A model generated the notes under the pieces. The model worked only from the letters and a program-made list of their open reading frames with translations, was not told where the DNA came from and ran no database searches. Below are positions 9,001 to 64,000 of a stretch of 64,000 nt of DNA, piece by piece. Position 1 is the stretch's first letter. Each line of letters begins with the position of its first letter. This stretch comes from Rhizophagus irregularis (Eukaryota): NCBI RefSeq assembly GCF_026210795.1, contig NC_089432.1, positions 2,604,001 through 2,668,000 on the forward strand, written 5' to 3'. The translations under genes and the position numbers were made by a program.

Positions 9001-9141
9001 AAAGAAATGCAATGCATGGTTTTTTTTTTAAAAAAAAAGATTTTCTATTCATCTACCCAAAATAAAAATAGAATAGTCTCCATATAAATAATTTGAATTA
9101 TGTAACTTAAAATTCCGTGCATATAATTAGACCCGTGACAT

Positions 9142-33809: not shown

Positions 33810-36800
33810 CTAGCCCTTGATTTTAACTTTGCCTTCAAAATCGCTATTCTGATCTAAAATAATTTAATAAATAAAAAAATAAATACATCAAATATAGGTA
33901 AAAATAAGTTTATTATAAGTATAGATGCTTACCAGACAATTGTGAAATGTCAATTTGCAGGGATTCTATCAAAAAAAAAATAAGTATTTTGTATACAATT
34001 AATTTGAATATTTTTTCATTAATCAATACCTTGAGACTCCATACTAATTTCAGAATACTTTTGCTCAGAAAGATTATTGTCATTGATTTTTAATTTTTTT
34101 AATTGAGAAATATCAATTAATAAGGATTCTAATTAAAGAATTGAAATAATATTAGTTAGTATTTTACAATTAATAAGAAATTTTATATTAATCATTACCT
34201 GAAGATTTTATGCTAATTATATCATCATTCTCTTTATAATAATCATCAGTATTTTTTGGTTCAGGAAGATTATTAAAATTAAGTAATCTACTGGTATAAA
34301 TAGCTTCTGAATGTGTTTTAAATGATATTCCTAAATTGGTTGAAATTGCACTGACCAATGTTCTACTATTGGTTATTTCTGATTCCTTAATTTGTTGTTG
34401 TATTCCTGTATAATTATCAAATTCGCTATGACCACTTAATTCCCTAAGCCATTGGCTTAACAATTTTTTAATTTCTTCTGCTTTTGGCCTATTTAATTGA
34501 TTTGCATCCAAGCATCTTTTAATTAAATTCACAATTAATTGAGGAACTCTAATATTGAATCTTGGTCTTAGTCCTTGACAAATTCTTATTGCTAAATTAT
34601 TATTATGGCTTACATCATGATATGGAGGTAATCCAGAAATTACCTCATACATAATTATACCAATACTGTAAATATCTGCAGCTTTGGTATAATCTTGGCC
34701 TCGTAAAATTTCAGGAGCAATATAAGGTAAAATACCATATATTTTATTTTTAGTATTTTCTGATGCATTATAATCTGCAGGTTTGCATAATCCCATATCA
34801 GTTATACATGTCATGCTTTTAAGCCTTAATATATTACCAATATGCAAATCTCGATGAATTAATTCTTCTTCATGAATATCTTTAAGTCCATGTGCAATGC
34901 TATGTAAATAATTAATTTTATCACTCCAACTTAATTTATCATAATTTCCATTTAAATAATTTCGCAAATTTCCACCTTCTGCATAATCTAAACCATAACA
35001 TAATTTTTTGTTTCTGGATCTTGAGTTATTCCATAAAATTTAATAATACGCTTTTGCAAGTTTAATTTGTAATGTAAGGTTATCTATATATTAAATAAGT
35101 ATTAGCACTAATAATTATAAAGATTTTAAATTTCAAATAGTAAAATAATTCACCTCATTCATAAATTCAAATGTAACATTTTTTGAATTATTTAAGCTTT
35201 TGAGTGCTACAAACATATTTTGATCTTTTCTTTTCCAATTTTGTTGTTTATTGTCCCATTCATCAATATATCCGTCAATCCATCTTGCTCTATATACTTT
35301 GCCAAACCCACCTTTTGCAATAAATTCAATATCATAAAATCTGTAGTAAGGTATCCATTCTAATGCTTTTTTGGACACATTATAATTACTATATGTTGAT
35401 AATTGGATACCTCGAATAAATTTATCAATATCTTCATTCCCACTAGTCCAATTTTTGAAGTTTTGCTGAAAATGGATTGTACTAAATACATATTTATAAT
35501 TATTGGTTTTTGGATCTTGAGTTACTCCATAAAGTATTTCAGCCTATAAATAAATTATATTAATGAAAATTTAAATTTTGAAATATTATTAATAATTAAT
35601 TTACCTCATATTTAAATTCTAATGCAATATCTGCCAAATTGTTCAAGTTTTTAAGAATTACATACATATTCTGGCCTCCTCTTTTCCAATTTTGATGTTT
35701 ATAATCCCATTCAATTATATATCCATCAATCCATTTCGCTCTATATACATCTTTTGTAATATATTCAATATCATAAAATTTATTGTAAGATATCCATTCT
35801 ATTGTTTTCTTGAATATTTCATAATCATCATGTGTTGATAACTGAGAATCTTGGATGAATTTATCAACTTTTTTATTACCACTAGTCCAATTTTTGAAAT
35901 TTTGTTGAAAATGTATTATACTACATGCATTTTTACATTTTTTACATTTATTATTCAAAACCATCATATAATTCTTAGCTTCTGAATCTTGAGTTATTCC
36001 GTAAGACATTTTAACCTATAAATAAATTATATTAATGAAAATTAAAATTTTAAAAATATTACTATTAATTAATTTACCTCATCTCTAAATTCTAATGCAA
36101 CATCTACCAGATTATTCAAGTTTTTAAGAATTACATACATATTCTGGCCTCCTCTTTTCCAATTTTGATGTTTATAATCCCATTCAATTATATATCCATC
36201 AATCCATTTCGCTCTATATACATCTTTCGTAATATATTCAATATCATAAAATTTATTGTAAGGTATCCATTCTATTGCTTTTGTGAATACTTTACAATTA
36301 TCATGTACTGATAACTGAACATCCTGAATAAATTTATCAACATCTTCATTACAACTAGTCCAATTTTGGAAGTTTTTCAAAAAATGCATTTTGCAACACA
36401 CATATTCACATTTTTCACATGTATCATTCAAAACTACTATATAGTTCTTAGTTACCAGATCTTGAGTTATCCCATAAAATTCATGAGTTATACAAAACTA
36501 TAAATAAATTATACTAGTGAAAATTAGATTTCAAAAATTTCATTAACCAATATATTAATTTACCTCATTTATAAATTCGGAACTGACATCTGTTGGACTA
36601 TTTAAGCTTTTAAGAACTACAGACATATTTTGGCCTTTTCTTTTCCAATTTTGATGTTCTTTATCCCATATGTCCATATATCCATCAGCCCATTTTGCTC
36701 TATATACTTTACAAAACTTATTTTCTGAAATATATTTAATATCATAAAATCTATTGTAAGGTATCCATTCTATTGCTTGGCATGTATAATTACTATGATC

Positions 36801-36950
36801 TGATAGCTGAGAATCTTGAATATATTTATCAATATAATTATTCCCACTAGTCCAATTTTTAAAATTTTGGTTAAACCGTTTTGCATTACATTCACTATCA
36901 CAATCACATGACTTAATCAGCTTTTTGGTAATTTTAGCAAAGAATTCCAT
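33810..36950 (-). CDS. Multi-module TKL-type kinase: three tandem partial N-lobe-like modules followed by one complete kinase domain
   Basis: Four repeats of NWTS(G/C)N..(I/V)DK(F/Y)I...EWI.Y..F.DI...VYRA.W.DG, each ending at an E|GT splice site. Only the fourth has GGFGKV and continues to HRDLHIGN, DMG, APE. Short 3' exons to a TAG at 33810 are less certain. Confidence 0.85.
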
Positions 36951-42681: not shown

Positions 42682-43140
42682 AGTGCAATATAACGTAATA
42701 GGCAAAAAATTACAAAATTTTATTAACACTATCAATGTAATTGATTATAATTATTATAAAAAGAGAGAAAATGGTATCTAAGAATAGAAAAAAAAATGTA
42801 AGAACCTTAAAGTTTGAGAGAAAATGAAAAAATCATTAGTTATTGATGGTAAACTCAATAATCGCCAATAATCTCAAACTTTGGACGAAAGAAGTAAAGA
42901 AACTCAAAACTGTACATAATAATTGACTTATAAGGAAAAGCTGTAAACAAACCTATTAACGCAACTTCTGGCAGGGAATCTTAGAAAAGAATGCGAAACA
43001 TATATTGGGTTTAAAATATTCGGTGAAAATCCACCCCAGCCAAATGATCGACATAGTTTATAAGCTGGATGTTCGTGCGCTAACTTATAGCTTATAAACT
43101 GCCCATGGGCATATGTAGCCCACGGGATCTGATTGGTTCA

Positions 43141-44250
43141 GAATGAGGACAATAATGTCCTCATAATTATGGACTGTGATAGTCCTTTAGTTTAAAAATG
43201 AGGGCAATAATGTCCTCGTAATTATGGACTATGAAGTGCCTTCAATTTAAAAATGAGGACAATAATGTCCTCGTAATTATGGACTATGATATGCCTTCAG
43301 TTTAAAAATGAGGACAATAATGTCCTCGTAATTATGGACAATGACATGCCTTCAGTTTAAAAATGAGGACAGTAATGTCCTCGTAATTATGGACTATGAT
43401 GCGCCTTCAGTTTAAAAATGAGGACAATAATGTCCTAACGTAATTATGGACTATGACAAACCTTCAGTTTAAAAATGAGGACAATAATGTCCTCGTAATT
43501 ATGGACTATGAAGTGCCTTCAATTTAAAAATGAGGACAATAATGTTTTCGTAATTATGGACTATGATATGCCTTCAGTTTAAAAATGAGGACAATAATGT
43601 CCTCGTAATTATGGACAATGACATGCCTTCAGTTTAAAAATGAGGACAATAATGTCCTCATAATTATGGACTATGATGTGCCTTGAGGACAATAATGTCC
43701 TAACGTAATTATGGACTATGACAAACCTTCAGTTTAAAAATGAGGACAATAATGTCCTCGTAATTATGGACTATGATAAACCTTCAGTTTAAAAATTAGG
43801 ACAATAATGTCCTCGTAATTATGGACTATGATGTGCCTTCAGTTCAAAAATGAGGACAATGTCCTCATAATTATGGACTATGATAGACCTTCAGTTTAAA
43901 AATGAGGACAATAATGTCCTAACGTAATTATGGACTATGATAAACCTTCAGTTTAAAAATGAGGACAATAATGTCCTCGTAATCATGGACTATGATGCGC
44001 CTTCAGTTTAAAATGAGGACAATAATGTCCTCATAATTATGGACTATGATGCGCCTTCAGCTTAAAAATGAGGACAATAATGTCCTCATAATTATGGACT
44101 ATGATGCGCCTTCAATTTAAAAATGAGGACAATAATGTCCTCATAATTATGGACTATGGTAGACCCTTCAGTTTAAAAATGAGGACAATAATATTCTCAT
44201 AATTATGGACTATGTTGGGCTTTAGTTTAAAAATTAGGACAATAATGTCC
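43141..44250 (+). repeat. Left subterminal tandem array, about 21 x 55 bp
   Basis: Consensus GAGGACAATAATGTCCTCGTAATTATGGACTATGAnnnnCCTTCAGTTTAAAAAT. Confidence 0.97.
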
Positions 44251-44255
44251 CTATA

Positions 44256-44588
44256 CATCATGGCGGATTTATAGAATACCCAAAAATTTGTCTGTCATGT
44301 CAAATTAAATAAATATTAGATGAGGTATTATTTTAGTCATCAAATTTCTATTTAAGTCCCAAATTTATTAGTGAACAGTCAAAAATGAGTTCTAAAAAAT
44401 TTTTTTGTACCTTAAATCTTGCATCTAACCAATTTTCCCATTATCTAAACAATTATTTCAGTATTAAAGGCACATCATTATTTGACATTTTTTAGGAAAA
44501 AGCTTAATGTTTTGGTAAGTCAATTTTGATTTCTGAGGGCGCAGCAGGATTTTTGCCAAATTTCATAAATCCGCTGCAATAAATGATG
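44256..44588. mobile_element. MITE inserted into the innermost 55-bp unit (second copy at 51741-52006)
   Basis: CATCAT..GCGGATTTAT ... ATAAATCCGC..ATGATG ends. The interrupted repeat unit resumes at 44589 (GACTATGATGGACTTCAGTTTAAAAA). Confidence 0.7.
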
Positions 44589-45326
44589 GACTATGATGGA
44601 CTTCAGTTTAAAAATAAAGGAAAAAATTATATAGTGGAACGGAAAGTTCACTATGACGAGCTTTGACTGTATAACTTTAGTTGCTTATTTAAATTTTTTT
44701 TTACTAGCTAGTACTAGTATTTTTAATTATCCAATCAAAATTATAGTCCAGAGTTTAAGTATTAAATAAGTTGCAAATTCAACTGTAAAGTTCTTTAATT
44801 AATTGCATATGGTTTAATATATTTAATTTCAATTTTTATATAATGATAATATACATGATTTAAAATGTACAATTAGCTTACTGGTATATAATGAATTGGT
44901 CTGTTCTGTTCTGATCCAGTCTGGTTTTAACAAAACTAGTCTTTTAACTAGAACTGGATCAAATCAGCCTTTGAGCCATTTTAAAGATTGTTCTTTAGAC
45001 TGGTATAAAACTGAAATTATTTTGCTATATGTATGTAGCTTTGACTTAATCAGAAAGACAATGAAATTATCAGTCATAACTTAACAGTCATTATTTAATT
45101 ATATCTAATTTGTAATAAACTGATATGAAATTTGAAATATGAAATTTTAATATTATATGATAATGAAATTAAATCATTTTATTGGATGAAAAATTTATAA
45201 CCTTGGATTAAAGACCATAATAACCAGTTCTAGAACTGGGGAAATTATTTTATTACCAACTATAATGCTAACTATTCTACTATTCACTCAAATTATTTAT
45301 CTTAAAATATATGTTATTTAAATTAC

Positions 45327-46743
45327 TTAATATCTTTTCTTATCTTCAGTACTTAAATCAGAATAATTACAGAATAAAACATCTTCAGGCCATCCTATTA
45401 TAGTATATTTAGTTTGGTTATACCAATTTTTATAGGGTATTCTTTCTTTTGTTATCAAATCTATAATTAATTAAGTATAATTATTATTAACTTTCCATTA
45501 TATTTAAAATTATAATTATTACTTACTAAATTTCTCTTGTAAATATTTTCTAACTTTATCACGTGCATTCTTACTATTTGGACATTCTTTATCAATAATA
45601 GATAATTGATCATCTGCACTTTCTATCATAGTTATATCCTCTATATCTTTTTGAAATGTAACTTGTTTAATAATTTCATTTTTAGCTGATACAGAATAAT
45701 ATAAAAAGTTAGTTAATTTTTATAACATTTGTATAAAATAATATTATTATACCTGATTTTTTTAAACAAGAAAAATGATAAAAACTGTTATGAATTTCGT
45801 CTAGTTTTAAGCAGGACTTGTAAAATTCTTCACCAACTGGAGTTCCAAAATAAGAGATGTTCAATTCTTTGCTTAAAGGAATCACAAGTGTCAAAAATTC
45901 TACATCACAGGTAATTTGTAAAGTTCGATACTAGAAATCAAGCATTTAATAATTAATTATATAGAATTTTATATTTTAACTGATAATCTAATAATATATA
46001 TACATACCAATTTTCTAATTTCACAAATTTGTTTATTTAATTCAGCTTTGCGAAGTCTTATACTTTCTATTAATTTTGGTTCTTTATTGAATCTATTTTC
46101 AGATAATTCTTCAGCTCTGTTTTTAAAAGAATTCAATTGTTCTTTATTAAGCAATGCATATTCTTCAGCACATTGTTTTTGAGCTCCTGGAGTAGTAACT
46201 TTAATTTCTAGTAAATATATAATTCTTTTAATAAGTAAATATTTTATGATAAATTAAACCAATAATATTTATAGAACATACTATTTTTTTTGAACCATTC
46301 AGTTTGAAATGTATTCCATGAACTAATACTGCGAGTCTTTTTTGGTGCTGGTTCTCGATTATCTTTCATGATACTCTATAATTTATAAAAAATTTGGTCA
46401 AATCAAAATAAATTATTCTTTGAATTGTATTCAAAATTTTTAACCTTTATAAATGCTAGCTCAAGTTGGCATTCATCAGATAACATTTGGATTTCTGCAT
46501 CATGTTTTTGTTGTAAAGCAATAATCTTTTCATATTTTTCCTGTGTAAGACCTAAATTAAATTAATTAACTTAAATATAAACTGAAAGTATAAAGTATTT
46601 TAATATTTAAAACATTATATTGTAATTACCATCGCCTTTTTCTTTGAAAAGTTGATCACTAAAAGAATCAGATATGAGATATTAATACAAGGTAAATAAT
46701 TTTTAAACAGTATATCAAAAAAACTTTACGTTGAAATATCCAT
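45327..46743 (-). CDS. Transposon-borne HMG-box-like protein, 8 exons, about 300 aa
   Basis: Hand-spliced GT-AG model: MDISTDQLFK...PKKTRSISSWNTFQTEWFKKNKIKVTTPGAQKQCAEEYALLNKEQLNSFKNRAEE...IPYKNW...IIGWPEDVLF. Possible 1-nt frameshift just before the C-terminus. Confidence 0.7.
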
Positions 46744-47049
46744 TATGAGATGGGTGTAAAGAGATTAAATGATCAAAAAGATGAAAAGATTGTGATGAAA
46801 AAAGCATGAAAATGTTATTTTAATTGGCTGTCAGCTATTTTGATCAAGAATTATGATTGGCTAATAATCACCTGAAACAAACAAACAATCATTTGTACAA
46901 TAAATAATGAAAAAAATATGATTCAAAGTTTTGGTGACATACTTTTAATTACTAACTTATCAAATTGCTTCTCTTTACTGAATTTTTAGAAAGCTTACTT
47001 ATTCACTGTTAGGGTATTTAACTCATTACCATTTCTAATATTTTCTCAT

Positions 47050-47830
47050 TTTATTTTTTTAATAATTTTACTATTTTCTGAATTTTTTTGTTTTTATTAT
47101 TTATACTTAACTCCTCTGTTTCTCTATCACTTCTTTTATCCTTCTCTAATCAAGAATCTCCTTATCTTTTAATCCAATTTACCTATGCTTTGAGACTTCT
47201 CAGAACTTACTACTTCTTGACATCTCATTTTCCAAATTTTTTCATATATATACGTCAAATATAAGTCACAACATATCTTCAACATCTTTGAATCATCTAC
47301 TTTACAATGTTTATATTGCCAAATCTTGATGTTAGAAAGTCCACGCATTATCTCATATAGTAAATTCTTAATGTAAATAATCTTGATTTAACATTACTAT
47401 GTTGTAAAGCTTTTCTCTTTCTTTATTATCTTCTGTAATTACATTGACTGCATCTATCCATAAATTAATAGAAGAATCTTGTTACAATGCTACTATATAG
47501 TAGTATGATCCCATGTTTCTGTTTCTTCATTACATCTTATACATTTCTCTGAAGAAGTTCCAAAAACTTTCCTTTGATATAATATTTCATATGTTGGCAA
47601 TGTTTAAAGAAACTTTTTGATCCTAAAAGCTCTAATTTGAGTATCCATCGCATTAGTTGATGATTTTGATACACTTGTTTCATTACGAATTATCATAAAC
47701 AAAATTGGCCAATTGATGTTAACTTATATTAGTTACAAATAGCTGTTCTAATTATTTTAATAACATAATTTCTTTCTTATTGTTAAGACTACTAAGGTCT
47801 TTGGCCCATTTCTATAACAACCTTCCATAT
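47050..47830 (-). mobile_element. Decayed LINE ORF2 C-terminal fragment nested in the KDZ element
   Basis: LPTYEILYQRKVFGTSSEKCIRCNEETETWDH (Cys/His finger region), with many stops. Confidence 0.65.
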
Positions 47831-47899
47831 TTTATTTTTTAAAAAAAAATTTGCACTGCATTTCTTTATTAAACAATACCATAGATATACATATTAACG

Positions 47900-50800
47900 T
47901 CAGAAATACCTAGAGGCATGTGAAAAAGCACATGACCCTATAGCAAACCAGTCTATTTAAATACAAAGAGCATATATAATTATATATACCTGAGCGTGCA
48001 AAAAGAACTAACAACAATATATAATCGATGTCACTCAACCCAAAAGAAACAATACAAAATAAAAAAAGAAAAACAAAAAACTTTCACACATAACATATAT
48101 AAAAACTCTAGACCTAACAGAAAACTAAAATTTAACTAAAGTAAGATTACAAGTAACTTCCATTATACGGAAATGTGTTTAAAACCAAACGAAACTTTCA
48201 TTAGTGACCACTCGCCCAGAATTATCACACCTCTTTTCCAACTTCCATCACCTATAATCCACTTATCCCTTTTTTTTATTTTTTTAATTTTAATAATGCA
48301 TTTATTATCAATTACAAAAAGATTACATAAAAAAATTTTTAAAACACTAAAAAATAATTAAAAATTTTAATTATCTTCTATAACTAAAAGCATTTTATAC
48401 TAAAAAATTTTTTTATACTAATTTATTTTAATACCCCCATGATTTCGTAATTGATATACCTTCCATTATTTCTAATATTGTTTTCTATATTTTTTCTTTA
48501 TCTTTTTCTATATTATCTGCTGTTTTGTATTTTTTCTCGCTTTACCTCCTCCTTTTGCTCTTTTGATCTTTTTTACGTTTCTTTTTCTCACCTTTCTTTA
48601 AATCCTTCTTTTCTTCTATCGCCACTACATCTTTACATCTTTTATCCCATATTTTCAATCTTATATTCTCATAACAAAAACACCACAATTCTTCTATAAT
48701 CATATTGTATTCTTTTTCTTCAAAATAAGATTGAAATTGTTATTATATAATCCTCTAAGCATCTCCCATTCTCTACTAAAACCTAATAAAATTCTTGTAG
48801 GCTTTTCTAATACTTGAACAAAATCCTATTAATATCTCATAATATTGTCGAATCATCAATCTTTTTTTCATCCTCCAACTTTTTATCGAATTCTCTATAA
48901 TTTCTCTTACAGAAAATTCATTACACTCACATTTCCATTAATTATACCAATCTTCTTCTTCCTTATTGCATCTTGGGCAGGTATCATTATCAATCCAAAT
49001 ATTTTCCTTTTAAAAAGTACACTATATGTTAGTAATTCTTTTATCCAATTTTTAATTTTATACGCTCTTTCTTTTGTGTCCTCTTGCGCACATTGCCAAA
49101 ATGTAAATTTGTTCCATTGCTTATAAATTTTAAAGACTTTACCCAATCGAATTTATTTCTGTAATTATAGGAAAATAAATCTTCAATCTTTTTACTATTT
49201 AAAATTTCGTTCTTCCATATCACTTCTGAAACTTTCTTTCGCCATCCCCTTAAATCTCCTAAAATCAAATTATATTTCCAATATAAATTGAATTCGTTGG
49301 TCACTAATCCCCCTTCATTAAAGTCTATCATATATGTTTCATTTTTGCTTTCTTTCATTTGCAATAGAATTTATCCATTTCTTCTTTACATATTTTTATA
49401 TCGTTCGCCTCCTTCTCCGTACACGAAATCGTTCTTATATTCATTTGCGATCAAAACTTTTCTATTACCAATAACTCCATATTGTATTCATTATCTAACC
49501 TTCGTCTTGTACTTAAATTTTCTATAATTCTTTGATAATTCACAAAATTTCCCATCTAAACCTAAAATTAATTCGCTATTACTATTTAATAAAATGATAC
49601 CTATTATCAAACATCTTAATAAAATTTTGTATTCATTCTCAAACAATACTTTAAATTTTCTGTTAAAATTAATCTCATTCTTTGTAACGAATTCTTCATG
49701 TCTTATCTTCCACATTACTAAATATTCAATCGATTTTTTCCCATTTTCCTTAACTTTACTTTTTAGTTTCATAACCTCTATCATTAAAAAATTTACCTTC
49801 CTCCTAAAACTAAAATCGTCTTTCTCTAAAATACTATTCTTTAAAATTCTATCAGATTTTTATTTGTATTAACCAAATTATCTATCATCTCAATTCTTGT
49901 ATTAAATCTTTATTCTTTTTATTCTTCTCTTAAATATTTTTCCACCAGATCATTTATTTTTAATATTTCGGAATGTCTCATAAGGTTTGATATTCCAACC
50001 TTCGTTCCGTTTTCTAATAATCCTACTTTCTTCATTTTAAATAAATTAAACATTCAATTTTACTCTCTTTATTCATATTTTTTTTTACCTATATTCTTTT
50101 TACAACCCTTACATTTAATTAAAGTAGGTGAATCATCTATATTTATATTCTCATTTATCATGATCCAATGTATCCCTATCCTCTTATAATTTTTATTTCT
50201 TGATTTTTTCCTATCTTCTCCAAAGATAGGAAATCCTTTTTCATCATTCCATGTTATTAAATTATTTCTTGACACTTTCTCATTTTCATCAAAAATTTTC
50301 ATATGAATATTATTTCTATCAAAATTTTTATTTTTATATTAAATTTCTCATCTCTTTATTTTCTCTCACTTCGTTTTCTACAATCTTAAACCAATTAGGT
50401 ATTTTACCTCTAAAACTCAAATCATTTCCTATAAAACATGTTTCCACTTCATTATTCTAAATTGATTTGCTTCCAATAATTGTTCTAAAAAGAGAATTTC
50501 TTTCTTTCTTCGTGATAATGCACTTCTTTAAATTTCTGAATCAGGTAATAGATCTATTATCTCTATATTACCACCTTTAATCTTATGCCCTGCATTTTCG
50601 TCTAAAATCTCATGATTGCATAAACTCATGTTTCTGATTTCAACAAGTTAATTGCATCGTTAATCTAACAATTGCGTCCTTTTATTGCTTTACCATTTAT
50701 ATCTCCTATGCACACTGCGGTCCACAATCTCATTTATTCTTGCATTATCTTGATTTTAAATAAAGTACTCAATTTTTCATTACCATTTGCTAAATAAATA

Positions 50801-51170
50801 ACATTCTTACTTAAACTTTCAAGTTGCAGATCGTAAATATTTTTTAACCCATAAAATCTTTCTCATATAAAATCATTTTTTAAAGCTTTCATAATTTGTC
50901 CCCATCAAAATTTTTCCTTCGTTAGAATTTTACTTAGTCATTTACCAGAATTTTCAAAAATAATTTTCTCGCTGTCTCTATTAAAGTAATTGGTTGTATC
51001 AATTTCAAATCTTGATTCCAGTCGGATAAATTAGACCTTTTTTCCATTCTCCTAAAATTACTCCACACTCCATACCCTCATTAATTATTCCTAACAAAAA
51101 CCTTTTGTTAAATTTTTACAATATTTCCAATAGTCATATGGAATCCCACATTCCCACTAATATCTGGAGC
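47900..51170 (-). mobile_element. Second decayed LINE (ORF2 3' half plus 3' UTR) nested in the KDZ element
   Basis: Frameshifted fragments: LFLEQLLE, RGKIPNWFK, GDLRGWRKK, ERAYKIKNWIKELLTY, REWEMLRG. Boundaries approximate. Confidence 0.65.
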
Positions 51171-51740
51171 TTTATTATTTTTTGCGTGCTGGCATCTCTA
51201 TAAAAAAAATAAGAAATTTCAGAAACATTTCTTTAAAACAATTAAATTAAAGAAAAAGCTCTATCTCCTATAAGTGTCTACCTTCTTTGTTTAATGGCAC
51301 CCTTTGAAAAACTTTAAATTTATATTTCATTTATACAGTATTCTCTATTGTCTCATGTTTTATTATACAAGTAAAGATTTTGATTATCTCAAATTTAGCT
51401 ATAATAAATGATGGTACTGGATTATATTATAAATAGTTGATAGAAGCCAGGTGTAGAGTACTGAAATATTTGCAAAGAAATCTTAAAATAAAATTGGAAT
51501 TTTAACAATTTAATTAGCGTTAATTAGGATAATCATTAAAAGCCGAAACCAAATTTACTTTTATACCATGTGAAATCAGACAATCAATACAAAATATGAC
51601 GTAATAAAAGTTATTGGAAAAATCGAAAAATCAGAATTTTTTTATTTGATTATAATAAATATAAAAATAATTATTAAAAGTTTAATATTCAGTTTCATAA
51701 TAAATATATAATATTTATATAACAACTTAATTAAAATTAA

Positions 51741-52006
51741 CATCATGGCAGATTTATGAAATACCCCAAAATTTGTCTGTCATGTCAAATTAATTATATG
51801 TTTGATCACCAAATTTCTATTTAAGTCCCAAATTTATTAGTGAACAGTCAAAAATGAGCTTTAAAAATTTTTTTTTCCAGTGTTAAAGGCGCATCATTAT
51901 TTGACATTTTTTTAGGAAAAATTTCTGTAAGTCAATTTTAATTCCCAAGGGCGCAGCAGGACTTTTTCCAAATTTCATAAATCTTTATAAATCTGCTGCA
52001 ATGATG
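51741..52006. mobile_element. Second copy of the 44256-44588 MITE
   Basis: Collinear, high similarity (AAAATTTGTCTGTCATGTCAAATTAA; AAGTCCCAAATTTATTAGTGAACAGTCAAAAATGAG) with internal deletions. Confidence 0.75.
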
Positions 52007-52427
52007 ATAATCAGTAATATTTATTTCTTGAAAAAATAATCGCAAATGAAGTTAAATTTTTTCGCCTAATATGAAGAATTTTATGCCACAATAAATTTGC
52101 ATCATTTTTGTGATTGATTTAATATATAAATTTGCACAAGAAAATAATTTTTACACAAAAACCCTATAACTATCTTTTTTTATTTAGTAATCATTAATTT
52201 AAATTTGATTGATGATATATTACATTTTATTTTCAATTGACCGTTTATGATTAAATAATCCTTTGTAATTTAAATTGTATTATAGTTACTAATTAAAAAA
52301 AATTCAAATAAAATGTATAGATTTTTTTTTATTATTTTAGCCCCCATTTGATCGGAGTACAAACTATAAATAAGTTTTCTATAATTTTTAACAGGTAATT
52401 AAAGTAATTATTCTATTTTGAGTTACA

Positions 52428-52730
52428 ATCTAAAAATAGTATAGAAAACATTTCAAACATTTTCCCATTACGCGTTTAATTCTAAAAATAGTATAGAAAA
52501 CATTTCAAACATTTTCCCATTACGCGTTTGATTCTAAAAATAGTATTGAAAACATTTTAAACATTTTTCCATTACGCGTTTAATTCTAAAAATAGTAAAA
52601 CATTTTCCCATTACGCGTTTAAGTCATTTAATTCTATAAATAGTATAGAAAACATTTCAAACATTTTCCATTACGCGTTTAATTCTAAAAATAGTAAAAC
52701 ATTTTACCATTACGCGTTTAATTCTAAAAA
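52428..52730 (+). repeat. Tandem repeat, 6 units of 39-60 bp, each containing ACGCGT
   Basis: TTCTAAAAATAGTA...AAACATTTTCCCATTACGCGTTT; ACGCGT at 52470, 52522, 52574, 52613, 52673, 52712. Confidence 0.92.
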
Positions 52731-52819
52731 TAATTAATTACAAATGTACTAGAATAAAATAACATAAACAATCCCTATTTTTCTTTTTTTTAACGTTTAC
52801 GAAATTTTAAACTTTTACA

Positions 52820-54810
52820 ATGTCAAATAATATAAAGGTAAATTGTACTTTTAGTTATTATAGTTAAATAAAATTATTTATAATGTATTTAATATGTTTA
52901 TTTATTTAACTTTAAGGACAATAAAGTTTCATTATCATTATCTGATAATGACAATATAAAAATTTCAGAAGCTTTATCTTTTATTCGTAATAAACTTCAA
53001 GGCCGCCTTAAAAACATTTCTGTCATCAACGATCGTACAGCTGTCGTCATATATGGAAAACATAAAGATAGATTGATGATCGATTTGAAGGATAATAATT
53101 ATTATGAAAATTTAGAAGTAAGATTATTAAAATTAAATTCTTTTTTTTCTCTATAATTTATATTTATATTTTTATATGCATATTAGGAAAAACTCGAAGC
53201 ACTTAAAGCTGAAAATAATAATTTGCTGGTAAATAGTGTTATATATAATACAAATGTGTTTTAATTTTAAAATTTACATTTTATTAAAATTTTATTTAAT
53301 ATATTAAAATTTACTTTAGTCTGAATTGAAGAAGTTTGAAACCCTGGCGCGTTTTGATGGATCATTTTCAACAGTCGTATCATCAGATAATGATAATAAC
53401 GAAACTAGTCTAGTTGATAACATATCTACAACTTCTACTGCATCTAATAATTTGCCATCAATGTCATCCCCGTCTATATCAACTTCTTCTAAACCTTTTA
53501 AATTAGAAGATTATATTACAGTTTTAAATAATGATTTAAATACCGTTAATCAATCAATTGAAGATGATTCTGATGAAATTTGGGAGAAATTAAATTCCAG
53601 ATGCCACAAAAAATTTGGATATAATAACGAAATCAAACAACCTACAAGAGAGGATATAAAATGGGGGGCTGATATTCTACCTATTTATGCAGAATGGAAA
53701 AAACTAAAAGATTTTAAATGTTTAATAGAAAAATGGATCGCTAAAATCAACGAATATATGCAGAAAAATGATATGTTATCGTCGTCCCCAACTTTAATTT
53801 CATCTTCATCTTCGTTCTCAACATTAATTCAACCATCACCATCTTCAACATCAGTTCCATTATCATTTGTCTCTTTAATTAAAGGAAAGAAAGTAAGAGA
53901 TAATGTAAATGAAAGCATAGAAGTTGTAAAAATTAATGTAGATAATAAAAATGAAGTGGACGAAGATGTAGAAATTATGGAGATTGATGTAGAAAATGAC
54001 GATATACAAAATGAAGAAACTGAAGGTATTTCTGTTTTTTATTGAACTAATAAATATAATTATTATTAATTTATATTTATATAATCTATTATATTTCTTA
54101 AATCAATAGATAAAGCAAAAAAAAACCTTGAAGCTAAAGAATTAAAAGAGAAGAAATTCAAAAAATTTGGTGAAAAACTCCGAAAACTAGTTATGGATGA
54201 TCTTCAATCAAATACTCATGATTCACCAGTTCAAAAATTGGCAGATAAAGATATGGTTAATGAATCGGATTTACAAAATAATAATTTAACGCACTCCCTT
54301 AATCTTTTAACTGCTGAACCAATTAAGATTATAGATAAAACAAGTGGTATACAAAGAGTCAAGCAGTGGGCCCTCCAAAAGAACCAAATAGAAAAAATTG
54401 GAATAGCGTTCAATGTATTCAAGTTTTATCATAGGATGTCCTTGATTGATATTTATAATGAAATTAATGTTGTGGCAGAATCAAATTTTCCAAATCAGAA
54501 GGGTAAACAAAGGACATTTGTAAAAGAGATTATTTGTATTCAAGAAGGCATTTCAGAACGTTCAGAACGACGTTTTAAAACAAGTGCAATGAGGTTACAA
54601 CATATCGTTAGTGCAGGAATATCCTTTAATCAGATAATTAAAGTAGGAATGCACGTATCTGATTTTGAATCCACCAACCATTTTTATGAAATATTTATGG
54701 AAGCACTTGATATCAATTCAATAGAAAATTTAAATGAAGGAGTACGACCATTGAATACAAAAATTTTATTTGATAAATTGTCAGCATATGAAATAATGGA
54801 ACTAGATTAA
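52820..54810 (+). CDS. Transposon-borne protein of unknown function, 5 exons, 555 aa
   Basis: Exons 52820-52837, 52917-53117, 53187-53228, 53320-54025 and 54110-54810 are all GT-AG, in phase and stop-free. Ser-rich and acidic linkers; helical C-terminal domain. Confidence 0.8.
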
Positions 54811-55347
54811 TGAGTTTTAGCATTTATTAATTTTTAGTTAAATTTGTATTGTTTTTTTTTTTGAAGTAGGGAATTATTATAAAATCTTTACTAAATATTA
54901 TTAAAATTATTGAAATAAAAGATTCTTAAAGTAATAGTTCAGTATAAATTAAAGTTACCGTGCATTGCTTAAAAGGCCCATTTTAGCTTCTATATTTAAT
55001 ACCGACCCAAAATATCATAATATATAGATTTTTTTTATTTTCTTAAATTAAGAATATTAAACCATTAAACCATTACTATAAGTTGAATGAAATCTTTCGT
55101 ACATTAAATTTGTTTAATACAGCAGGATGTATGTATACACCCGATCTAATTAAATGTTTTAAACCTGGTAAATTGATTTATACCTAAGGTATTAGGCAGT
55201 GTTATAAGGTACTTATGGTAATATCTGCTAATCTGCTTTTATTTTATAAATAGATTTGATCTGCAGCAAGTAGTCTAATTGGCTAATTTAGTTTGATCAA
55301 TCCCGAAAAATTTTTTTTTGTAAATTTATTCTTTTTACATATTTAAT

Positions 55348-58300
55348 ATGAATAAAGGAAATTTGAATAAAAAAGGTATTTATATTATTGTTATTAAAGA
55401 AATATATTTAAATTGTTACTTAATATCTTTTATTTTTAGGTAAAATTAGTTACAGGCCTTATTTAGTTTCTTCAAATAAAAAAAATGCAAAAAAAGTAGT
55501 TATTAATCGATATGCAAAAGGAAGTAACAAATATCGAGCCAAAAATTTATCTGAAAATATATATAAATCTACTGAAATAGTGGATGAAGATAGAAACAAT
55601 GATGAATGGATAGATATTGATATTATAAAAGAAGATGAAAACTATAGTTCTGCTAAAAATACATATAAAAATGCTCAAAAAAATTTGTCCGAAAATTGGA
55701 GAAAAATCTCACCAAAATTATTTGACATTATGATAGAAAATAATGCAATTAATAAGGACTCCAAATGCTTCAAATGTAATTCACCTGCCATTTGTTATTG
55801 TTTAGATTGTGGTCTTAATACTTATTTGTGTTTAGAGTGTAATACTTTATATCATAAGGATATAAATTTATTTCATAGAAAAGTTTTTATAAGTAATATT
55901 TTTGATAAAGAAGAAATAAAACTACCACAATTATGTACAGGATTTTGTGAGCATGAAATTAAGGAAATATCAATCATTAATTTAAAAGGTAAAGTATAAA
56001 TCTTATTTGTTATACTTTAATAAAATTTTCAATTAAATAAATATTGCATTAAATAGGAATATTTAAAGCAAAATTTCCAACTTGTGAAGGTTTGGTCGAA
56101 ACATTAATCAGGCATAAATTATTTCCTTCCACCCCTATAAATCCACAAGTTGCTTTCTCATTTGAATTATTTGATATTTATCAAGAATTATTACTCGAAG
56201 CACATGTATCATATCTTTCATTTTGTCGAGTATTAGAATCATTATTCTCTGATCAAGATATAACTAGAGTTAAGTTTTTAAAAAATTTCATTATATTAAT
56301 GTTATATAGTTTACTAATATGTTTTTATTATTATTAGAACATATATTATCTTTTTAAATCTGCTTTTCATCAATATTTAGGATTAAAAACTATGATTGAA
56401 AATACTATTAATAAGTTATTTAGTAGTAAATCACAATTTAATTGTCCAGCTTGTCCACAGGTAACTTTATTTTTTGCTTGATTTACTTCCCATTTATATT
56501 TTTAAAAACTTTTTTACATTATATTTTGAATTAATAAACAAATTTAATTATAGCCAGAAGAGAAAAACTCTAAAATTATAATTGCATTGGATGCTAATTT
56601 TCAACTTAAACGAATGAAAAGTGCTGGTTCTAATATTGGTGAAAGAATAATTGAAGAATCATTTATTTTAAACCAAAATAAATATGATGAATGGGTACAA
56701 AATTCGATTAATTTAAGTTCATTAAATACATTAAATATAAATAATAATAATGCGGTAAGTATTCTATATATATATTTGTTGTTTATTTAACTTCATTTAT
56801 TATTTTAATTTGTTAATTATTAATTATTTATTATTTCATTAAGCAAATAAATGTATGTGACAGCCATTTTAAAGCGGCTAATCAAACAAAAGCAAACCTT
56901 AAATCCAATTATTTGGACGATACAGGAATATTTGGAAGTACATGTAGGCACGGCATTCCTTTAAAATTTATTAATTTAAAAGGAATTGGGGAAAGGTAAT
57001 TTATATATTATTGTAATATTAACATTTGATATTAACATTAGTTATTCATATTATATAATTACATTTTTATAGATTTTCTTTAGCAGAATATATTTTATCA
57101 GATTTACATAATATGTTTTATGAAGATTCTTCTACATTTATTGTCTTATATGATATTGCATGCAATCTTCATTCACATGTAGAAAAAAGTGAAAGTAGAC
57201 TTTTTCCATTCAAATCTCGATTTAATTGGTGTGTTTCAATATTTCATGCCTATGCACATTCAATGAAATGCCAATTAAATTACCACCCAAGGGCTTGTAA
57301 TTCCATAGGATTAACTGATGGGGAAAGTTTAGAAAGACTGTGGTCATATTTAGGACGCTTTTCTTCTACAACAAGATATATGAGACCACATCATAGATTG
57401 GATATTTTAGAAAAAGGAATTCAGCATATAAGTAGAAAAATGATTAGTAATTTAGGTAATGTTCAATTAAATTTATGATAATTTAAAATATTTATATTTT
57501 AATTTATATTTTTATTTTATATCAGCATGTAACTTAGTTAAAAGGTTTAAAAATGCTTATAAAATAATGAATGTATCAGTAAAAATATTAAAAGAAATGG
57601 AACAAATGCATGGAATTGATGAAAGTAAAATACTTTATTATATTCAGTGCCAGTATGAATCCAATTTTGGTAAATATTATGTATTTTATTATGCTAATTT
57701 TTTAAAAATTAGTTTTAATATATGAGATTTTTAGTTTTTAGGCAACATTTAATTGGAAAAGAGTTGTATTTCTTAAACCTAATGGAATTACATCCATATG
57801 AGTATGTACTAATTTTATTCAAGTAATAATTATTTTAATATTACTAAATACTAATATTATTTTTTTAGGATTGAAATATCAAAAGCTAACTCTGAAAGAC
57901 AGTTGGAATCATTAAAAAGATCTCGCTCATTATATATAAAAAAAGTTGAAAAATGTGAATCAGATTTAGATATACCTGAATCAAAAAGATGGAATCCATT
58001 TAATCCTATATATTCCAAATATTTTCATGATTATTGTGAACGTAATTTGGATTTAATTTCTGATAAGCTTAGAAAATTTCGTAATGAATATATATTTAAA
58101 AATTCACAATTATATAATCAAGACCATATAGGTAATTATATATATTTGTAATCTTAACTTATTTATTAAAATATTATTTAACCATATTTATTTTTATTAG
58201 GTCATAAGTTAACATTAAAAATTAAATCAAGTATTAAAGATATTTCAAAACAAATTGAAATAAACATTTCATATTATGAATATTTCAGATTACTTGCACA

Positions 58301-58992
58301 AGAAAATTCATTTTGTAAAGATTATCCAAAAGCAATATTTAATGAAATAGTTAATCATACGTCAGATTTTTGGCAAATATTAGATATATCAATTAATGAT
58401 AAAATGGATAATATACCTCGAATAGTTATATTCAATTCAATTAAAAATTTTAATAATTTACAACGGTCTAAAGAAGAAATATCATTAATTGTGCAAGAAT
58501 TAAAAAGATTATATGATTTCTGGATGAATTATAAAATTAAAATTGAAAATAAATTACAACAATTACAACAATTTAATGAAAAAACTACAAAAAATGTAAG
58601 TATTATTCATTTTTATCTTGTAATTATTTTGAACAAGCTATTAATAATCTAAATAAAAAATTTGTTTGTAGTATGGAATGATTTGTATTTTGATGAAATA
58701 TTATAAAAATGTAAGTAAAAATTTAGAAAATTGTCAGATAGCTTTAAACAAAATTGAAAATTACAAAGTGAATAATACTGTACAAGTAGTAGATGTTCCA
58801 ATTTATGATTTAATTAATGAGATTGAGGAAGATAATCTTTTAAAAGGAGATTTAGCAGAAAATTTAACTGAATTAGAAATTTGTGATAATGAAGAATGTA
58901 TAGAATATGAAGGGGAAATAGTAGATAAAAGTAAAGATTGTGAAGAAGAAATAATAACAGAAGGTGAAAGTATGGATTATAAAATAGTATAA
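55348..58992 (+). CDS. KDZ-family transposase with N-terminal Cys clusters, 12 exons, about 945 aa
   Basis: CFKC..CLDC..CLEC..H; LFPSTPINPQVAFSFEL (CxC-type); CPACP; ALDANFQLKR; DTGIFGSTCRHG; GERF; YDIAC; FHAYAH...CQ; GLTDGESLERLWS. Exons total 2838 nt with no internal stop. Confidence 0.93.
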
Positions 58993-59636
58993 TCGATCCA
59001 AAAGGAGCAATATGAATTGAATATCTAATAAATCTGACAAATATTTTGATACTTAAAAAAATTAGTCATATATAATATAATATTTATTATAACAACTTTG
59101 AAATAAATAGAAGAAACCTATTTTACTTTAAAAATAACTTTTCTAACAATTTGATTAGGAGTTTAAAGCGGTAAAAAAATATTGCAATTAAAATATATTT
59201 TTATTTCTCTAAATTTTCTGCCACATTATTACCTTTTAGTTTAAATGGTTATGGCACAATTTCCTGACGGGATTACATTTGCCTGAAAGATTTGGCCAGT
59301 GTTATGCAGGTTATGCATGAACACGTGATCAAACGGCCAGCGTTAGGTTATTGGAAAAATGTCCTGTCAGGGAACAGTCCATAAGTGGTTTAAATAGACA
59401 ATCAAATATGAAAATACATTTTAAACAAAAAGAACATGCTATTTATAATATAACCTGTTAATAGTAAGTTATATGAGTATACTACTGTTATTATTTTAAA
59501 TGAGATCTATAATTATAAAGACACTATGATTGTCCATTTACTAATTAGGAGGTTCCTATAATCTATATATGAATACAGAAGCTGAATATAATTTAAATGA
59601 GAGGTCCAATATTGTCTGTAATTATGAGAGCTATTT

Positions 59637-61016
59637 TAAACTAAAGGACTATCATAATCTATAATTACGAGGACATTATTGTCCTCATTTTTAAACTGAA
59701 GGCACATCATAGTCCATAAATACGAGGACATTATTGTCCTCATTTTTAAGTTGAAGGTCTATCATAGTCCATAATTACGAGGACATTATTGTCCTCATTT
59801 TTAAACTAAAGGACTATCATAGTCCACAATTACGAGGACATTATTGTCCTCATTTTTAAAATGAAGATCTATCATTGTCCATAATTACGAGGACATTATT
59901 GTCCTCATTTTTAAACTAAAGGACTATCATGGTCCATAATTACGAGGACATTATTGTCCTCATTCTTAAATTGAAGGCACTTCATAGTCCATAATTATTA
60001 GGACATTATTGTCCTTATTTTTAAACTGAAGATCTATCATAGTCCATAATCACAGGGACATTATTGTCCTCATTTTTAAACTGAAGACACTTCATACTAG
60101 TCCATAATTACGAGGACATTATTGTCCTCATTTTTAAGTTGAAGGTCTATCATAGTCCATAATTACGAGGACATTATTGTCCTCATTTTTAAACTAAAGG
60201 CTTGTCATAGTCCATAATTACGAGGACATTATTGTCCTCATTTTTAAACTGAAGATCTATCATGGTCCATAATTACGAGGACATTATTGTCCTCATTCTT
60301 AAATTGAAGGCACTTCATAGTCCATAATTACAAGGACATTATTGTCCTCATTTTTAAACTAAAGAACTATCATAGTCTATAATTACGAGGACATTATTGT
60401 CCTCATTTTTAAATTGAAGGCACTTCATAGTCCATAATTACGAGGACATTATTGTCCTCATTTTTAAACTAAAGGACTATCATAGTCTATAATTACGAGG
60501 ACATTATTGTCCTCATTTTTAAATTGAAGGCACTTCATAGTCCATAATTACGAGGACATTATTGTCCTCATTTTTAAACTAAAGGACTATCATAGTCTAT
60601 AATTACGAGGACATTATTGTCCTCATTTTTAAACTGAAGGCACATCATTGTCCATAATTATTAGGACATTATTGTCCTCATTTTTAAACTGAAGATCTAT
60701 CATGGTCCATAATTACGAGGACATTATTGTCCTCATTTTTAAACTAAAGGACTATCATAGTCCATAATTACGAGGACATTATTGTCCTCATTCTTAAATT
60801 GAAGGCACTTCATAGTCCATAATTACGAGGACATTATTGTCCTCATTTTTAAACTAAAGAACTATCATAGTCCATAATTATGAGGACATTATTGTCCTCA
60901 TTTTTAAGCTGAATAAGGCGCATCATAGTCCATAATTATGAGGACATTATTGTCCTCATTTTTAAACTGAAGGCGCAACATAGTCCATAATTACGGGGAC
61001 ATTATTGTCCTCATTC
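59637..61016 (-). repeat. Right subterminal tandem array, about 25 x 55 bp, reverse complement of the left array
   Basis: GAGGACATTATTGTCCTCATTTTTAAACTGAAGGnnnnTCATAGTCCATAATTAC units at about 55-bp spacing. Confidence 0.97.
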
Positions 61017-62527
61017 TGAACCAATCAGATCCCGTGGGCTACATATGCCCATGGGCAGTTTATAAGCTATAAGTTAGCGCACGAACATCCAGCTTATAAA
61101 CTATGTCGATCATTTGGCTGGGGTGTGAAAATCTGGGAATTTTTTTTAATCAGATGATCGACGTTGCACACACCATTTTATTTGATCACCAAGAATATCA
61201 TCATACGAATGTACTGTATTATTACAGAAGATTATATCATAGTAATCTATTTAAAAAAAAAAATTTATATCAAAAAAAATTTCCATTATCAAATCTATTA
61301 TAAAAAAAATATATTCTTATAACCAAAGCCTATTGTTATTACTAAAAAAATCAATAGAACTATTACTTAATAGTATTGGAATGACACCAGTTTATACCAG
61401 GAAGCAAAAAAAAAGTAAATTTTTTTTATAACCGGGAACTAACTATTACTATAAATTAATATTAGTAAATGTCAGTTACCGATCGGGTAAAGTCCGATCT
61501 ATTGTTGGAAAAAAATTTTTAAAAAATCTTGAAAAAATTTCTAAATTAAAAAAAAAATCCTAAAAAAAAAACAAAAAAAAATTACTAAATGATCTATTAA
61601 AAATGATTTATCATTAAAAAAAAAATAAATGAAAATTACTAAAATGATTCTGTTAAAAAAAAAATAATGATAAATGACTAAACAATCTATTAAAAAAATA
61701 AAAAAAGTTACTAAATGATTATTAAAAAAAATAAAAAAAAGTTACTAAATAATCTATTAAAAAAAAATCAATAAAAATTACTATAAGATCTATTGTTAAA
61801 AAAAAATAATTGTTTAAAAAAATAAAATTACAAATGAAAAAAATTCCGATCCAAAAAAAAAATTAAAAAATTAAAAAATTACTAAACGAAAGAAAGGCCA
61901 AAGTCCGATCTATTGCTACAAAAAAAAAAAATCCTGAAGTTAATCTATTACGGTTAAAAAATCAGAGATAAAAAAAATTACTAATCGTATAAAGAAGAGC
62001 AATATTGTATTTACAATTTATTAACTTAACAAGTTAATTGTCTATTACTTATTAATCATATTAGCCAAAACTTCAATTACCAGAAACTAAAAAATTTTTA
62101 TATTAGTAATCAAACAGTAATCAATGGATTTGCTGATCAACTACTATATGAATATGGAATAGTTCAGGCGCAGACAAATCATATTCATATTCATAAGATC
62201 AGCCGCAGTTGTAATATGTCCTGCGGTAAAAAACTTAGTAAGAAAAAAATACATTAAAAAATAAAATTTAGCCGTAGTATAAATCAAATAAAGATACTGT
62301 AAGTGACAGTAACATTAGTAATTCACCAATCAACACTTTTAATTATACAATCACGGGACACGTTTCACAATTCAAAGATTATTTATACGGGTAATCTAAA
62401 CGTTACTGATCTACACAAATTATTTTTATTATATTAATTAATAATATAGATATAGATATAGATATAGATGAAAAAAAGTAATTTAAACAATTTTAGACTA
62501 ATAAATTTACTTAATAACATTAAATGC

Positions 62528-62633
62528 TAGGTCGGGTCAGTTATTTGACTCGATTCGTATTAAAATCCCATGTCATTTTATGACTTCAAATATATCCTCA
62601 AACCCGACCTGACTCGACCCTTTCTGGGATATT
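62528..62633. mobile_element. hAT MITE remnant related to 42333-42681
   Basis: Reverse complement reads TAATATCCCAGAAAGGGTCGAGTCAGGTC, matching TAGTGTTCCGAAGGGGTCGAGTCAGGTC at 42333. Confidence 0.6.
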
Positions 62634-64000
62634 AAAAAATGCATAAGATTGACACAAATTATTTCTAATTTTAGTAAGTACATTAAATCGATTTTGAGCA
62701 TCTTGATAACCTTGTTTAGCGGATTGTTCATACCAATAAATTGCTTTGTCTATATCTTTTCCGATTCCTTCTCCTTTTTCATGCATCAAAGCAAGATTAT
62801 ATTGAGCTATTTTATTCTCTAAACTTGCTGCTTTTCGGTATAATTCAACTGCCTTTTGTATATGAATATTAATGCCAATTCCATTATGATAACAATATCC
62901 TAACATCATTATTCCACCTGAGTATATTCCTTCAGCTGATTTTTTGTATAATTCAAAAGCTCTTTGATGATTTTCTTCAACACCATCTCCATTTCTATAG
63001 GAATTCCCAAGATTGCACATAGCTATCAAATGTCCATTAATTGCAGCTTTTTCATACCAATCTGCAGCCATGCTAAAATCTGTACTAACACTTAATCCGT
63101 TTTTATAAAACCAACCTAGTTTAAATTGCCCAATTGCAAAATCTTTATCGGCTAGTTTTTTATAATATTCGAATGCCAATTTATTATTTATTGTAGTTCC
63201 ATTTCCAAATTCATGGCATTCTCCAACAAAATATTGTGCTAATATGTGACCCTTTTCAGAGGCATCAATAAATAAACTAAATGCTTTCTCCTCATCCTCA
63301 GTTATTTCAATTCCATAATAATTAAAATATCCCAGAAAAAAAATGGAATTCGGATTGATTTGATTATTTAATAACCAATTATAAATTTCATATAAATTTG
63401 TATTATAAATATTTATAATCATAAGGACGTATTCTTTTGTTACATTTCCTTTGTTCAGCCCATTAAAAATACGATTAATTATTTCATCAATTATCATATT
63501 TAAATTCTTCTCGTTTTGTTGATAAATATTTACACCATTTGAACATGAAATAAATCCTTTTAGTCTACTAACAACTTCTTTTATAGATGGTCGTTTGTTT
63601 GGTTCACCATTCCAACATTCTAATGATCAAATATATATAATTGATTAATAAATATTAATTAAAAATAGTCAATGCATTCTAATCATACTTACCAGTATAA
63701 AGATTAGAATAATCACTAGGTGTGTTAGAAATAATCTCTTCTCTTTGACCTTGCGAAATTTTATACATTAAGCTAAAATTATAACTCTTCCCATGAAATG
63801 GTGGATACCCACTTGATATTTCCCATAATAGTACACCAATACTATATATATCACTTTTCTCATTTAGGTTTAAATTGTCATCCATTAGTACTTTTGGATC
63901 AATGTAGGGAACCCTACCAAATAATTTTGTTTGTGAATTAGATGCTTCTTCAATCCATTTTGATAATCCAAAATCGGCCAACTTGATGGAATTCTGATGA
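62598..64000 (-). CDS. TKL-type kinase-Sel1 gene (5' part beyond window end)
   Basis: DFG and KSDIYSIG exon, then an intron, then ECWNGEPNKRPS in frame with the 299-aa Sel1 ORF. Confidence 0.9.

Follow-up and report, generated by a model that had tools for sequence, protein, structure and literature searches.

What kind of element occupies 18 kb of genomic DNA in Rhizophagus irregularis, a model arbuscular mycorrhizal fungus, and do the genes that it carries beside a transposase belong to it? The question arises from a stretch of 64,000 nucleotides (contig NC_089432.1 of assembly GCF_026210795.1, positions 2,604,001 to 2,668,000; hereafter the window, in whose coordinates all positions are given), in which a segment at 43032-61125 (18,094 bp) had been proposed to be an intact KDZ/Zisupton-type cargo transposon. 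We conclude with high confidence that this segment is a KDZ-class DNA transposon with exact ends, and we consider it likely that it arrived by a recent cut-and-paste insertion and that its two companion genes are its own equipment, travelling with the transposase. The element is a real, recently multiplied, and slightly damaged copy of a three-gene KDZ element; "intact" overstates its condition, given a frameshift in gene 3 and nested debris resembling a long interspersed nuclear element (LINE).

The ends carry the first part of the answer. The outermost 129 bases on either side are identical terminal inverted repeats (TIRs), with the first mismatch at base 130, and the same eight bases abut both termini on the outer side as a target-site duplication (TSD), so that both claims made for the ends hold. 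At the base composition found here, a chance match of eight bases has a probability of ~8e-5.

43024..43031, + strand: left TSD, TGAAAATC, found as a single copy at an unoccupied target in run X7
43032..43160, + strand: left TIR, starting CACCCCAG, 129 bp identical to the right TIR
60997..61125, - strand: right TIR, 129 bp
61126..61133, + strand: right TSD, TGAAAATC

The outer 28-38 bp of the TIR are common to related elements. An inner inverted repeat lies further in, within the TIR at 43055-43100 (AGTTTATAAGCT ... AGCTTATAAACT); between subfamilies its arms are kept and its spacer varies.

The three intron-rich genes of the original prediction could all be modelled with GT-AG introns alone (11 of 64-93 bp in the transposase gene, 4 in gene 2, and 7 in gene 3), and one of them, gene 3, proved to be frameshifted in its last exon.

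55348..58992, + strand: gene of the KDZ transposase, 12 exons, 945 aa without a stop
52820..54810, + strand: gene 2, 5 exons, 555 aa, no stop
45280..46743, - strand: gene 3, 8 exons, predicted HMG box at aa ~62-125 and predicted GTF2I-like domain at aa ~241-320

The transposase is free of stops, as had been claimed. It consists of a Cys/His cluster, a CxC1/CxC2-like domain, and a KDZ core with D317, D449, and a DGE(504-506)xxE motif, and only 2 of its 945 residues differ from the R. irregularis protein P0005 (99.8% identity). P0005 matches Pfam KDZ with 174.3 bits (E 3.9e-51; cut-off 26.6), which confirms the proposed family, and its N-terminal Cys cluster exceeds the cut-offs for both CxC2 (34.5 bits) and CxC1 (28.7 bits); single window exons score 107.4 and 36.6 bits against KDZ on their own. 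D449 and the DGE motif (504-506) are present in 20/20 aligned rows and D317 in 18/20; we take these residues to be the catalytic triad. An alternative intron 8, giving 937 aa, is possible, but the 945-aa form was chosen as matching the public models.

Near-identical transposase proteins all come from R. irregularis, in keeping with the Glomeromycota host that had been suggested, and their accession numbers link them to the two companion genes. Within the CAB448-449 accession series, genes 2 and 3 bear the next accession numbers for six of the seven near-identical transposase records listed, and the six triples sit on six contigs, each different in size; for the transposase CAB4485418, no neighbour appears among the matches listed. 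The same gene order recurs in other series.

CAB448-449 triples (transposase/gene 2/gene 3): 4496102/101/100; 4493699/700/701; 4480626/627/628
CAB448-449 triples, continued: 4490608/607/606; 4491585/584/583; 4488139/140-141/142
CAB5 triples, same order: CAB5180808/807/806; CAB5359134/135/136; CAB5368134/135/136
CAG triple, same order: 16996/16995/16994_t

Because the accession numbers are consecutive in six of seven records, the three genes likely move together, and genes 2 and 3 are probably the element's own equipment. The copies are also very much alike: among ungapped full-length copies, 1-2 of 945 transposase residues differ, and gene 2 differs from six ungapped public copies at 0-4 of 555. 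At least half the words of the stretch 52760-59500 were present in 17 of the 24 sequencing runs listed. The proposal of a recent, multi-copy three-gene unit is supported by near-identical copies and recurring gene triples; other flanks at the terminus would fit dispersed copies, with one paired TSD read, that of the window copy. Besides this family, the clusters of P0008, P0013, and P0015 represent at least three more multi-copy KDZ subfamilies in R. irregularis, which are 44-51% identical to it and have full-length transposases.

Where, then, does the element belong within the KDZ class, whose transposase domain, CxC cluster, conserved acidic residues, and defined ends with a TSD it all possesses? 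Dileera and Zisupton elements are described as having 8-bp TSDs, and Kyakuja elements as having 7-bp TSDs and no TIRs (Kojima 2025; PMC12730594). With its 8-bp TSD and 129-bp TIRs, the element differs from Kyakuja on both counts; an 8-bp TSD with TIRs agrees with Zisupton, and an 8-bp TSD with long TIRs agrees with Dileera. A strict Zisupton transposase, however, carries CxC4 and SWIM domains (PMC11343200), for which neither P0005 (to E 0.05) nor the window exons (to E 0.1) gave a match, and the ends resemble those of Dileera, so that the label "Zisupton-type" does not hold in its strict sense. Dileera is the best fit, above Zisupton proper, and the placement is provisional because CxC2 outscores CxC1 on the same residues and the tree is without labelled references. 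In that tree of 20 transposase rows, two Pleurotus CxC2 proteins stand apart from the other 18, and the forks around the element are unsettled. A word-limited search with the transposase core (57074-57454) ranked mussel and ribbon-worm proteins (41-55% identity) above Phycomyces (42%) and Pleurotus (33-35%) among matches outside the Glomeromycota; a search of viral contigs for transposase relatives confirmed none of its 22 pattern matches.

Several described elements are comparable. The rust Dileera and mushroom Zisupton and Kyakuja consensuses of Kojima 2025 (PMC12730594) are large, multi-gene KDZ elements, as here, and Dileera-1_PTrit begins with the same seven bases, CACCCCA; the mushroom Zisupton starts (CAGATATG, CGGATATG, GGGGCAG, or GCCTTG) are unlike those of the present element. 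By cell length, Table S1 of that paper gives 9.8-20 kb for Dileera and 14-24 kb for Zisupton. Its elements carry a TET/JBP dioxygenase, of which none was detected here: genes 2 and 3 and the debris had no Pfam match to it, a search for which very divergent types would need fold comparison. The name Rhizophagus does not occur in the main text and supplement of the paper in the form available to us. In Cryptococcus neoformans, KDZ1, KDZ2, and KDZ3 of the Dileera clade have a KDZ transposase with CxC1, like the present element, TIRs of 139-241 bp (129 bp here), TSDs of mostly 8 bp, and extra genes of unknown function, KDZ1 having three coding genes in ~11 kb (PMC11343200; PMC12810828). Those elements measure 9-11 kb and were observed to move, whereas the present element measures 18 kb and its movement is inferred; in it, CxC2 also scores slightly over CxC1, and the accessible text on Cryptococcus KDZ mentions no subterminal arrays, nested LINE DNA, or HMG/GTF2I-like gene (PMC11343200; PMC12810828). 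The giant KDZ elements of the brown alga Ectocarpus exceed 10 kb and have accessory genes, as here, together with nested unrelated transposons fixed among several copies, as is probable here too, but many of their transposases are pseudogenised, in contrast to the stop-free transposase of the window (PMC12477816).

For R. irregularis itself, surveys of transposable elements (TEs) record KDZ/Zisupton by transposase profile or repeat label, and, unlike here, ends, TSD, and gene content are not given in the portions available (PMC5751038; bioRxiv 2021.08.12.456011; PMC11075540). The DNA/TIR consensuses of the curated library in PMC11075540 span 1-17 kb, just under the length of the present element, and the accessible part of bioRxiv 2025.06.16.659975 holds nothing on its KDZ family. 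As to whether the complete architecture had been described in arbuscular mycorrhizal fungi, we found no full-length account of a KDZ element in mycorrhizal fungi in a literature search that took in few subscription papers, with Repbase, Dfam, and the Oliveira library outside its scope, but the kind of element is known from Cryptococcus, rusts, mushrooms, and brown algae. This absence is a weak argument because the search scope excluded most subscription papers and repeat libraries.

What do the companion genes encode? Gene 3 is the least ordinary part of the element and the one most worth following. A profile was built from 22 sequences (P0090, P0094, and 20 of the 41 relatives obtained by searching cluster representatives). 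It matched HMGB1 and TFAM over residues ~65-130 (E ~1e-4) and nine GTF2I repeat structures over residues 241-321 (best E 9.4e-4). The predicted structure has a mean predicted local distance difference test (pLDDT) score of 74.6, with 88-97 over residues 71-120 and 91-96 over 241-310; ranks 1-10 of a Foldseek search with this model were all GTF2I domains (best E 0.014; root-mean-square deviation, rmsd, 2.8). A wide structural search gave only three rows with Z of at least 8, namely two GTF2I domains (Z 8.0, rmsd 2.5 over 74 residues; Z 8.2, rmsd 4.8 over 81) and HMGB1 (Z 8.2, rmsd 2.4 over 59). Among 32 aligned relatives searched against Pfam (to E 0.1), GTF2I was matched by 11 (best 4.2e-6) and HMG_box_2 by six; one relative, P0137, lies above the HMG_box_2 cut-off (32.3 vs 22.4 bits), and the window exon alone lies below it (E 0.03). 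The profile, structure, and Pfam-relative tests rest on one alignment and are not fully independent. Together they predict a GTF2I fold in the C-terminus and a three-helix HMG fold in the N-terminal half. Distant relatives retain the HMG and GTF2I-like layout (28% over 304 columns), and look-alike clusters occur in Basidiomycota. Iyer et al. reportedly noted an HMG protein as the third gene of fungal KDZ elements. The animal GTF2I, GTF2IRD1, and GTF2IRD2 repeats and the HMG boxes of HMGB1 and TFAM are thus similar to gene 3 in predicted fold and weakly in sequence (19-29% identity), but gene 3 has a single repeat with an HMG box and is not a multi-repeat transcription factor. A literature search covering few subscription papers found no description of a GTF2I-like domain in a KDZ accessory protein. 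A MADS-like segment (one MCM1 match, E 0.055) was discarded, as a profile of the region did not recover it. Three unnamed proteins (P0161, P0162, and P0165) consist of two to four tandem GTF2I-like units, as in the multi-repeat animal proteins.

Gene 3 of the window follows P0090 (320 aa) over residues 1-302 and then shifts frame in an A run at 45335-45338, a change that costs the GTF2I-like domain its final predicted helix and strand. The full-length end is found in seven close records (P0090, P0091, P0112, P0116, P0119, P0123, and P0124), and P0117 has a third kind of ending.

Gene 2 is more elusive. The middle of its protein is Ser-rich and acidic, and its C-terminal domain resembles unnamed Mucoromycota clusters (scores 0.94 and 0.93). 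Neither a Pfam family above cut-off nor a sequence match in the PDB was obtained for it, and its single-sequence structure model (pLDDT 44.7) was unfit for a fold search. It is likely, on weak inference, a second accessory or regulatory protein. Upstream of it lies a small tandem array:

52429..52732, + strand: tandem 52/39-bp units bearing six ACGCGT motifs in all, 100-350 bp upstream of gene 2

In yeasts, ACGCGT is the MCB cell-cycle box. It occurs once in the 43 kb to the left of the element and six times here; as tandem copies, the six motifs count as one event. They might tie the timing of gene 2 to G1/S.

Just inside the ends, the element carries two larger arrays:

43142..44250, + strand: left subterminal array, ~20 units (20.3) of 55 bp
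59634..61015, - strand: right subterminal array, 25.0 units of 55 bp, in the orientation opposite to that of the left array
44582-44627: one more degenerate unit of the 55-bp array, after MITE-like copy 1 (listed below)

Each 55-bp unit holds the palindrome GAGGACA-N4-TGTCCTC, and units are ~90% alike within as well as between arrays. The arrays had been described as mirror images. Their orientation is indeed inverted, but they mirror each other in that respect only, because unit number and order differ; just one exact 55-base unit type is shared between left and right.

How might such an element move? DDE transposases bind the ends of their element, excise it, and join it to a staggered target, and host HMGB1 assists RAG1/2 complexes. 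On this basis, the transposase would bind each end at the conserved tip (the outermost 28-38 bp, its presumed site), cut the element out, and join it to the target with an 8-base stagger, the repair of which would give the 8-bp duplication. The 55-bp arrays are likely a protein-binding platform, and the gene 3 protein may bind and bend them, as HMGB1 does for RAG, and so help to pair ends that lie 18 kb apart; we hold this helper role to be about as likely as not. As gene 3 of the window copy is truncated, this copy would either obtain such help from others or do without it. The LINE-like DNA is likely an old passenger that was copied along.

The history of the insertion can be read in part from public sequencing runs. 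Contigs from four runs (X7, X14, X4, and X22) were compared with 42840-43136. An 84-base contig of X7 is identical to 42981-43031, runs on for 25 letters that are those of 61134-61158, and thus represents a target with one TGAAAATC. X14 and X4 yielded diverged versions of the flank only, and X22 (share 0.03) no contig over 42840-43136, which is not proof of absence. Contigs with unrelated flanks join the element at 43028-43034 in 3/3 runs with cover. The outer 38 bp are covered at least ~ten times as deeply as the rest of the TIR, and many relatives therefore share the element's tip. The target itself (42840-43031 and 61134-61160) is a repeat with many copies that appears to be non-coding, and three runs contain diverged versions of it.

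Several observations weigh against the reading of a recently moved three-gene KDZ element. The paired 8-bp duplication was read at the window copy only, and no further copy was recovered end to end. The evidence for linkage and copy number is the order of accessions, and one accession series is presumed to stand for one assembly. The short side of the X7 contig has 25 letters, under a bridging rule of 31, and the depth of the X7 flank (101.8) is ~six times that of other flanks (16.7-18.9); the element thus sits in a repeat, and the empty form in X7 may be a paralogous site. The search for an empty site thus yielded a target with a single TGAAAATC, possibly at a paralogous copy of the repeat. 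All exon structures are predicted and agree with public gene models. For gene 3, no Foldseek row reached E 0.001, and both domains fall under their Pfam cut-offs (GTF2I of P0090, 16.9 vs 27 bits). Its frameshift leads to a stop at 45327-45329 and a protein of 304 aa, compared with 320 aa in most public copies; P0118 and P0120 share this early end and so make a real break probable, although both records may stem from the window's own locus. Finally, CpG is depleted in the transposase region (0.47) and in the gene 3 region (0.45) relative to sequence outside the element (0.99), which fits past silencing.

These last points lead to the question of whether the window copy can act on its own. It is possible, though we lean against it, that the family spread recently while this copy is non-autonomous, either silenced or dependent on the full-length gene 3 product of others. 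A predicted GTF2I-like domain short of its last helix and strand and the CpG depletion would agree with this, as would the mobilisation in trans of giant KDZ elements in Ectocarpus (PMC12477816); yet the transposase and gene 2 are stop-free and 0-2 residues away from their closest copies, the ends are identical, and some R. irregularis tissues show upregulation of Zisupton-labelled TEs, in data not tied to the window's family (PMC11075540, Table S4). One may also accept the transposon and doubt its companions: genes 2 and 3 could be captured host genes, a Pack-type cargo with no role in transposition. The element does carry plainly useless DNA in its LINE-like debris and small repeats, gene 3 is truncated, and gene 2 lacks a family match and has only four close matches, all from R. 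irregularis. But every named close relative with a listed neighbour adjoins other genes of the element, a single-copy host orthologue did not turn up, distant relatives keep the HMG and GTF2I-like layout, and look-alike clusters exist in Basidiomycota, so that we find a captured cargo unlikely. Most radically, an assembly artefact or an old segmental duplication could have joined arrays into a false element, since assembly is difficult where both ends bear long arrays and, among the matches listed, neither a read nor a contig crosses a filled junction. With arrays that differ in unit number and order, an exact duplication, an unoccupied target with one TGAAAATC, and the same gene order in four accession series, this is highly improbable. 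We retain the reading of a KDZ transposon that likely inserted recently, together with what are probably its own companion genes.

With its exact ends, recent multiplication, and stop-free transposase, the 18-kb element offers a marker for present transposition and for differences between strains of R. irregularis, which vary widely in their repeats and in which two-thirds of TEs are unclassified (PMC11075540). Accessory genes of KDZ elements are mostly of unknown function, and gene 3 has two predicted DNA-binding folds; with the arrays as a candidate target, the helper idea is testable in vitro. The likeness to GTF2I, if it reflects homology, bears on the origin of the TFII-I repeat. It is tempting to speculate, doubtful as this broader idea is, that KDZ elements of Mucoromycota, and probably of Basidiomycota, encode their own end-pairing factor, in which an HMG box and a TFII-I repeat read the 55-bp arrays, that the TFII-I repeat, familiar from animals as a module of transcription factors, is an old transposon-borne DNA-binding domain, and that the window's family is still active. 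If so, a direct test could draw on the protein, its binding site, and the strain-specific insertions of the R. irregularis family.

The remaining features of the element are passengers or small repeats:

46900..51300, - strand: decayed LINE-like (non-long-terminal-repeat retrotransposon) 3' fragments, probably two, edges approximate
44255..44575, no strand: small repeat resembling a miniature inverted-repeat transposable element (MITE), copy 1, 15-bp inverted arms
51740..51990, no strand: MITE-like small repeat, copy 2, 13-bp inverted arms, diverged from copy 1

The LINE-like region between genes 3 and 2 comprises ~4.4 kb, or 24% of the element. Each frame is broken by 121-151 stops, and the region also shows two CxxC-x7-W motifs and a zf-RVT match that is weak and under cut-off (E 0.0037), features that suggest, with moderate strength, decayed LINE 3' ends. 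Six of the nine small open reading frames (ORFs) looked up there occur in the protein collection. One of them clusters with spliced models at four accession pairs (GET58306/7, GET58463/4, GET64861/2, and GET66305/6), which match the window near letter for letter across exons, and one such pair adjoins the gene 3 record GET64859. Because near-identical spliced models occur at separate accession pairs, several copies of the element probably carry this debris. The public models themselves belong to no convincing family and were treated as mis-predictions, and P0169, an unrelated bacterial protein, was dropped. An 88-bp match (74%) connects 47829-47914 in the debris with 8957-9041, beside a LINE-like frame outside the element. 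Copy 1 of the MITE-like repeat (250-320 bp in its two diverged copies) has seemingly split off the last unit of the left array. The repeat at 44255 and 51740 was also considered as a relic left end and rejected, as its own short inverted arms better suit a small MITE.

Related ends were also sought in metagenomes. A scan with the terminal 20 bases gave six loci, of which five match at least 28 bp from the terminal C and have different flanks; the other, L001, was dismissed as a chance 20-mer in GC-rich DNA. Three loci (L003:468-576, L004:107-1814, and L006:1141-1253) constitute a second subfamily, whose ends are ~84% alike over 110 bp; they lie in three different flanks and have another internal repeat in place of the 55-bp array. 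L002 shares the terminal 28 bp (L002:9993-10020), located between a kinase-like gene and a large multi-exon gene; a second end, TSD, or KDZ gene was not found there in 10 kb. L005:3-94 is a 92-bp element at a contig end, where a TSD is not readable, with two ends joined through the TIR palindrome; it is possibly a MITE or an assembly join.

In the window, the element is surrounded by a cluster of what we take to be kinase and Sel1-repeat-like genes (1-37000 and 62600-64000), in agreement with the host named by the near-identical proteins. The flank also contains an open frame of 358 aa at 29278-30351, presumably a Tc1-type transposase look-alike judged by eye, and tandem arrays of 108 bp x 10.6 at 24607-25755 and of 473 bp x 2.9 at 35495-36869.

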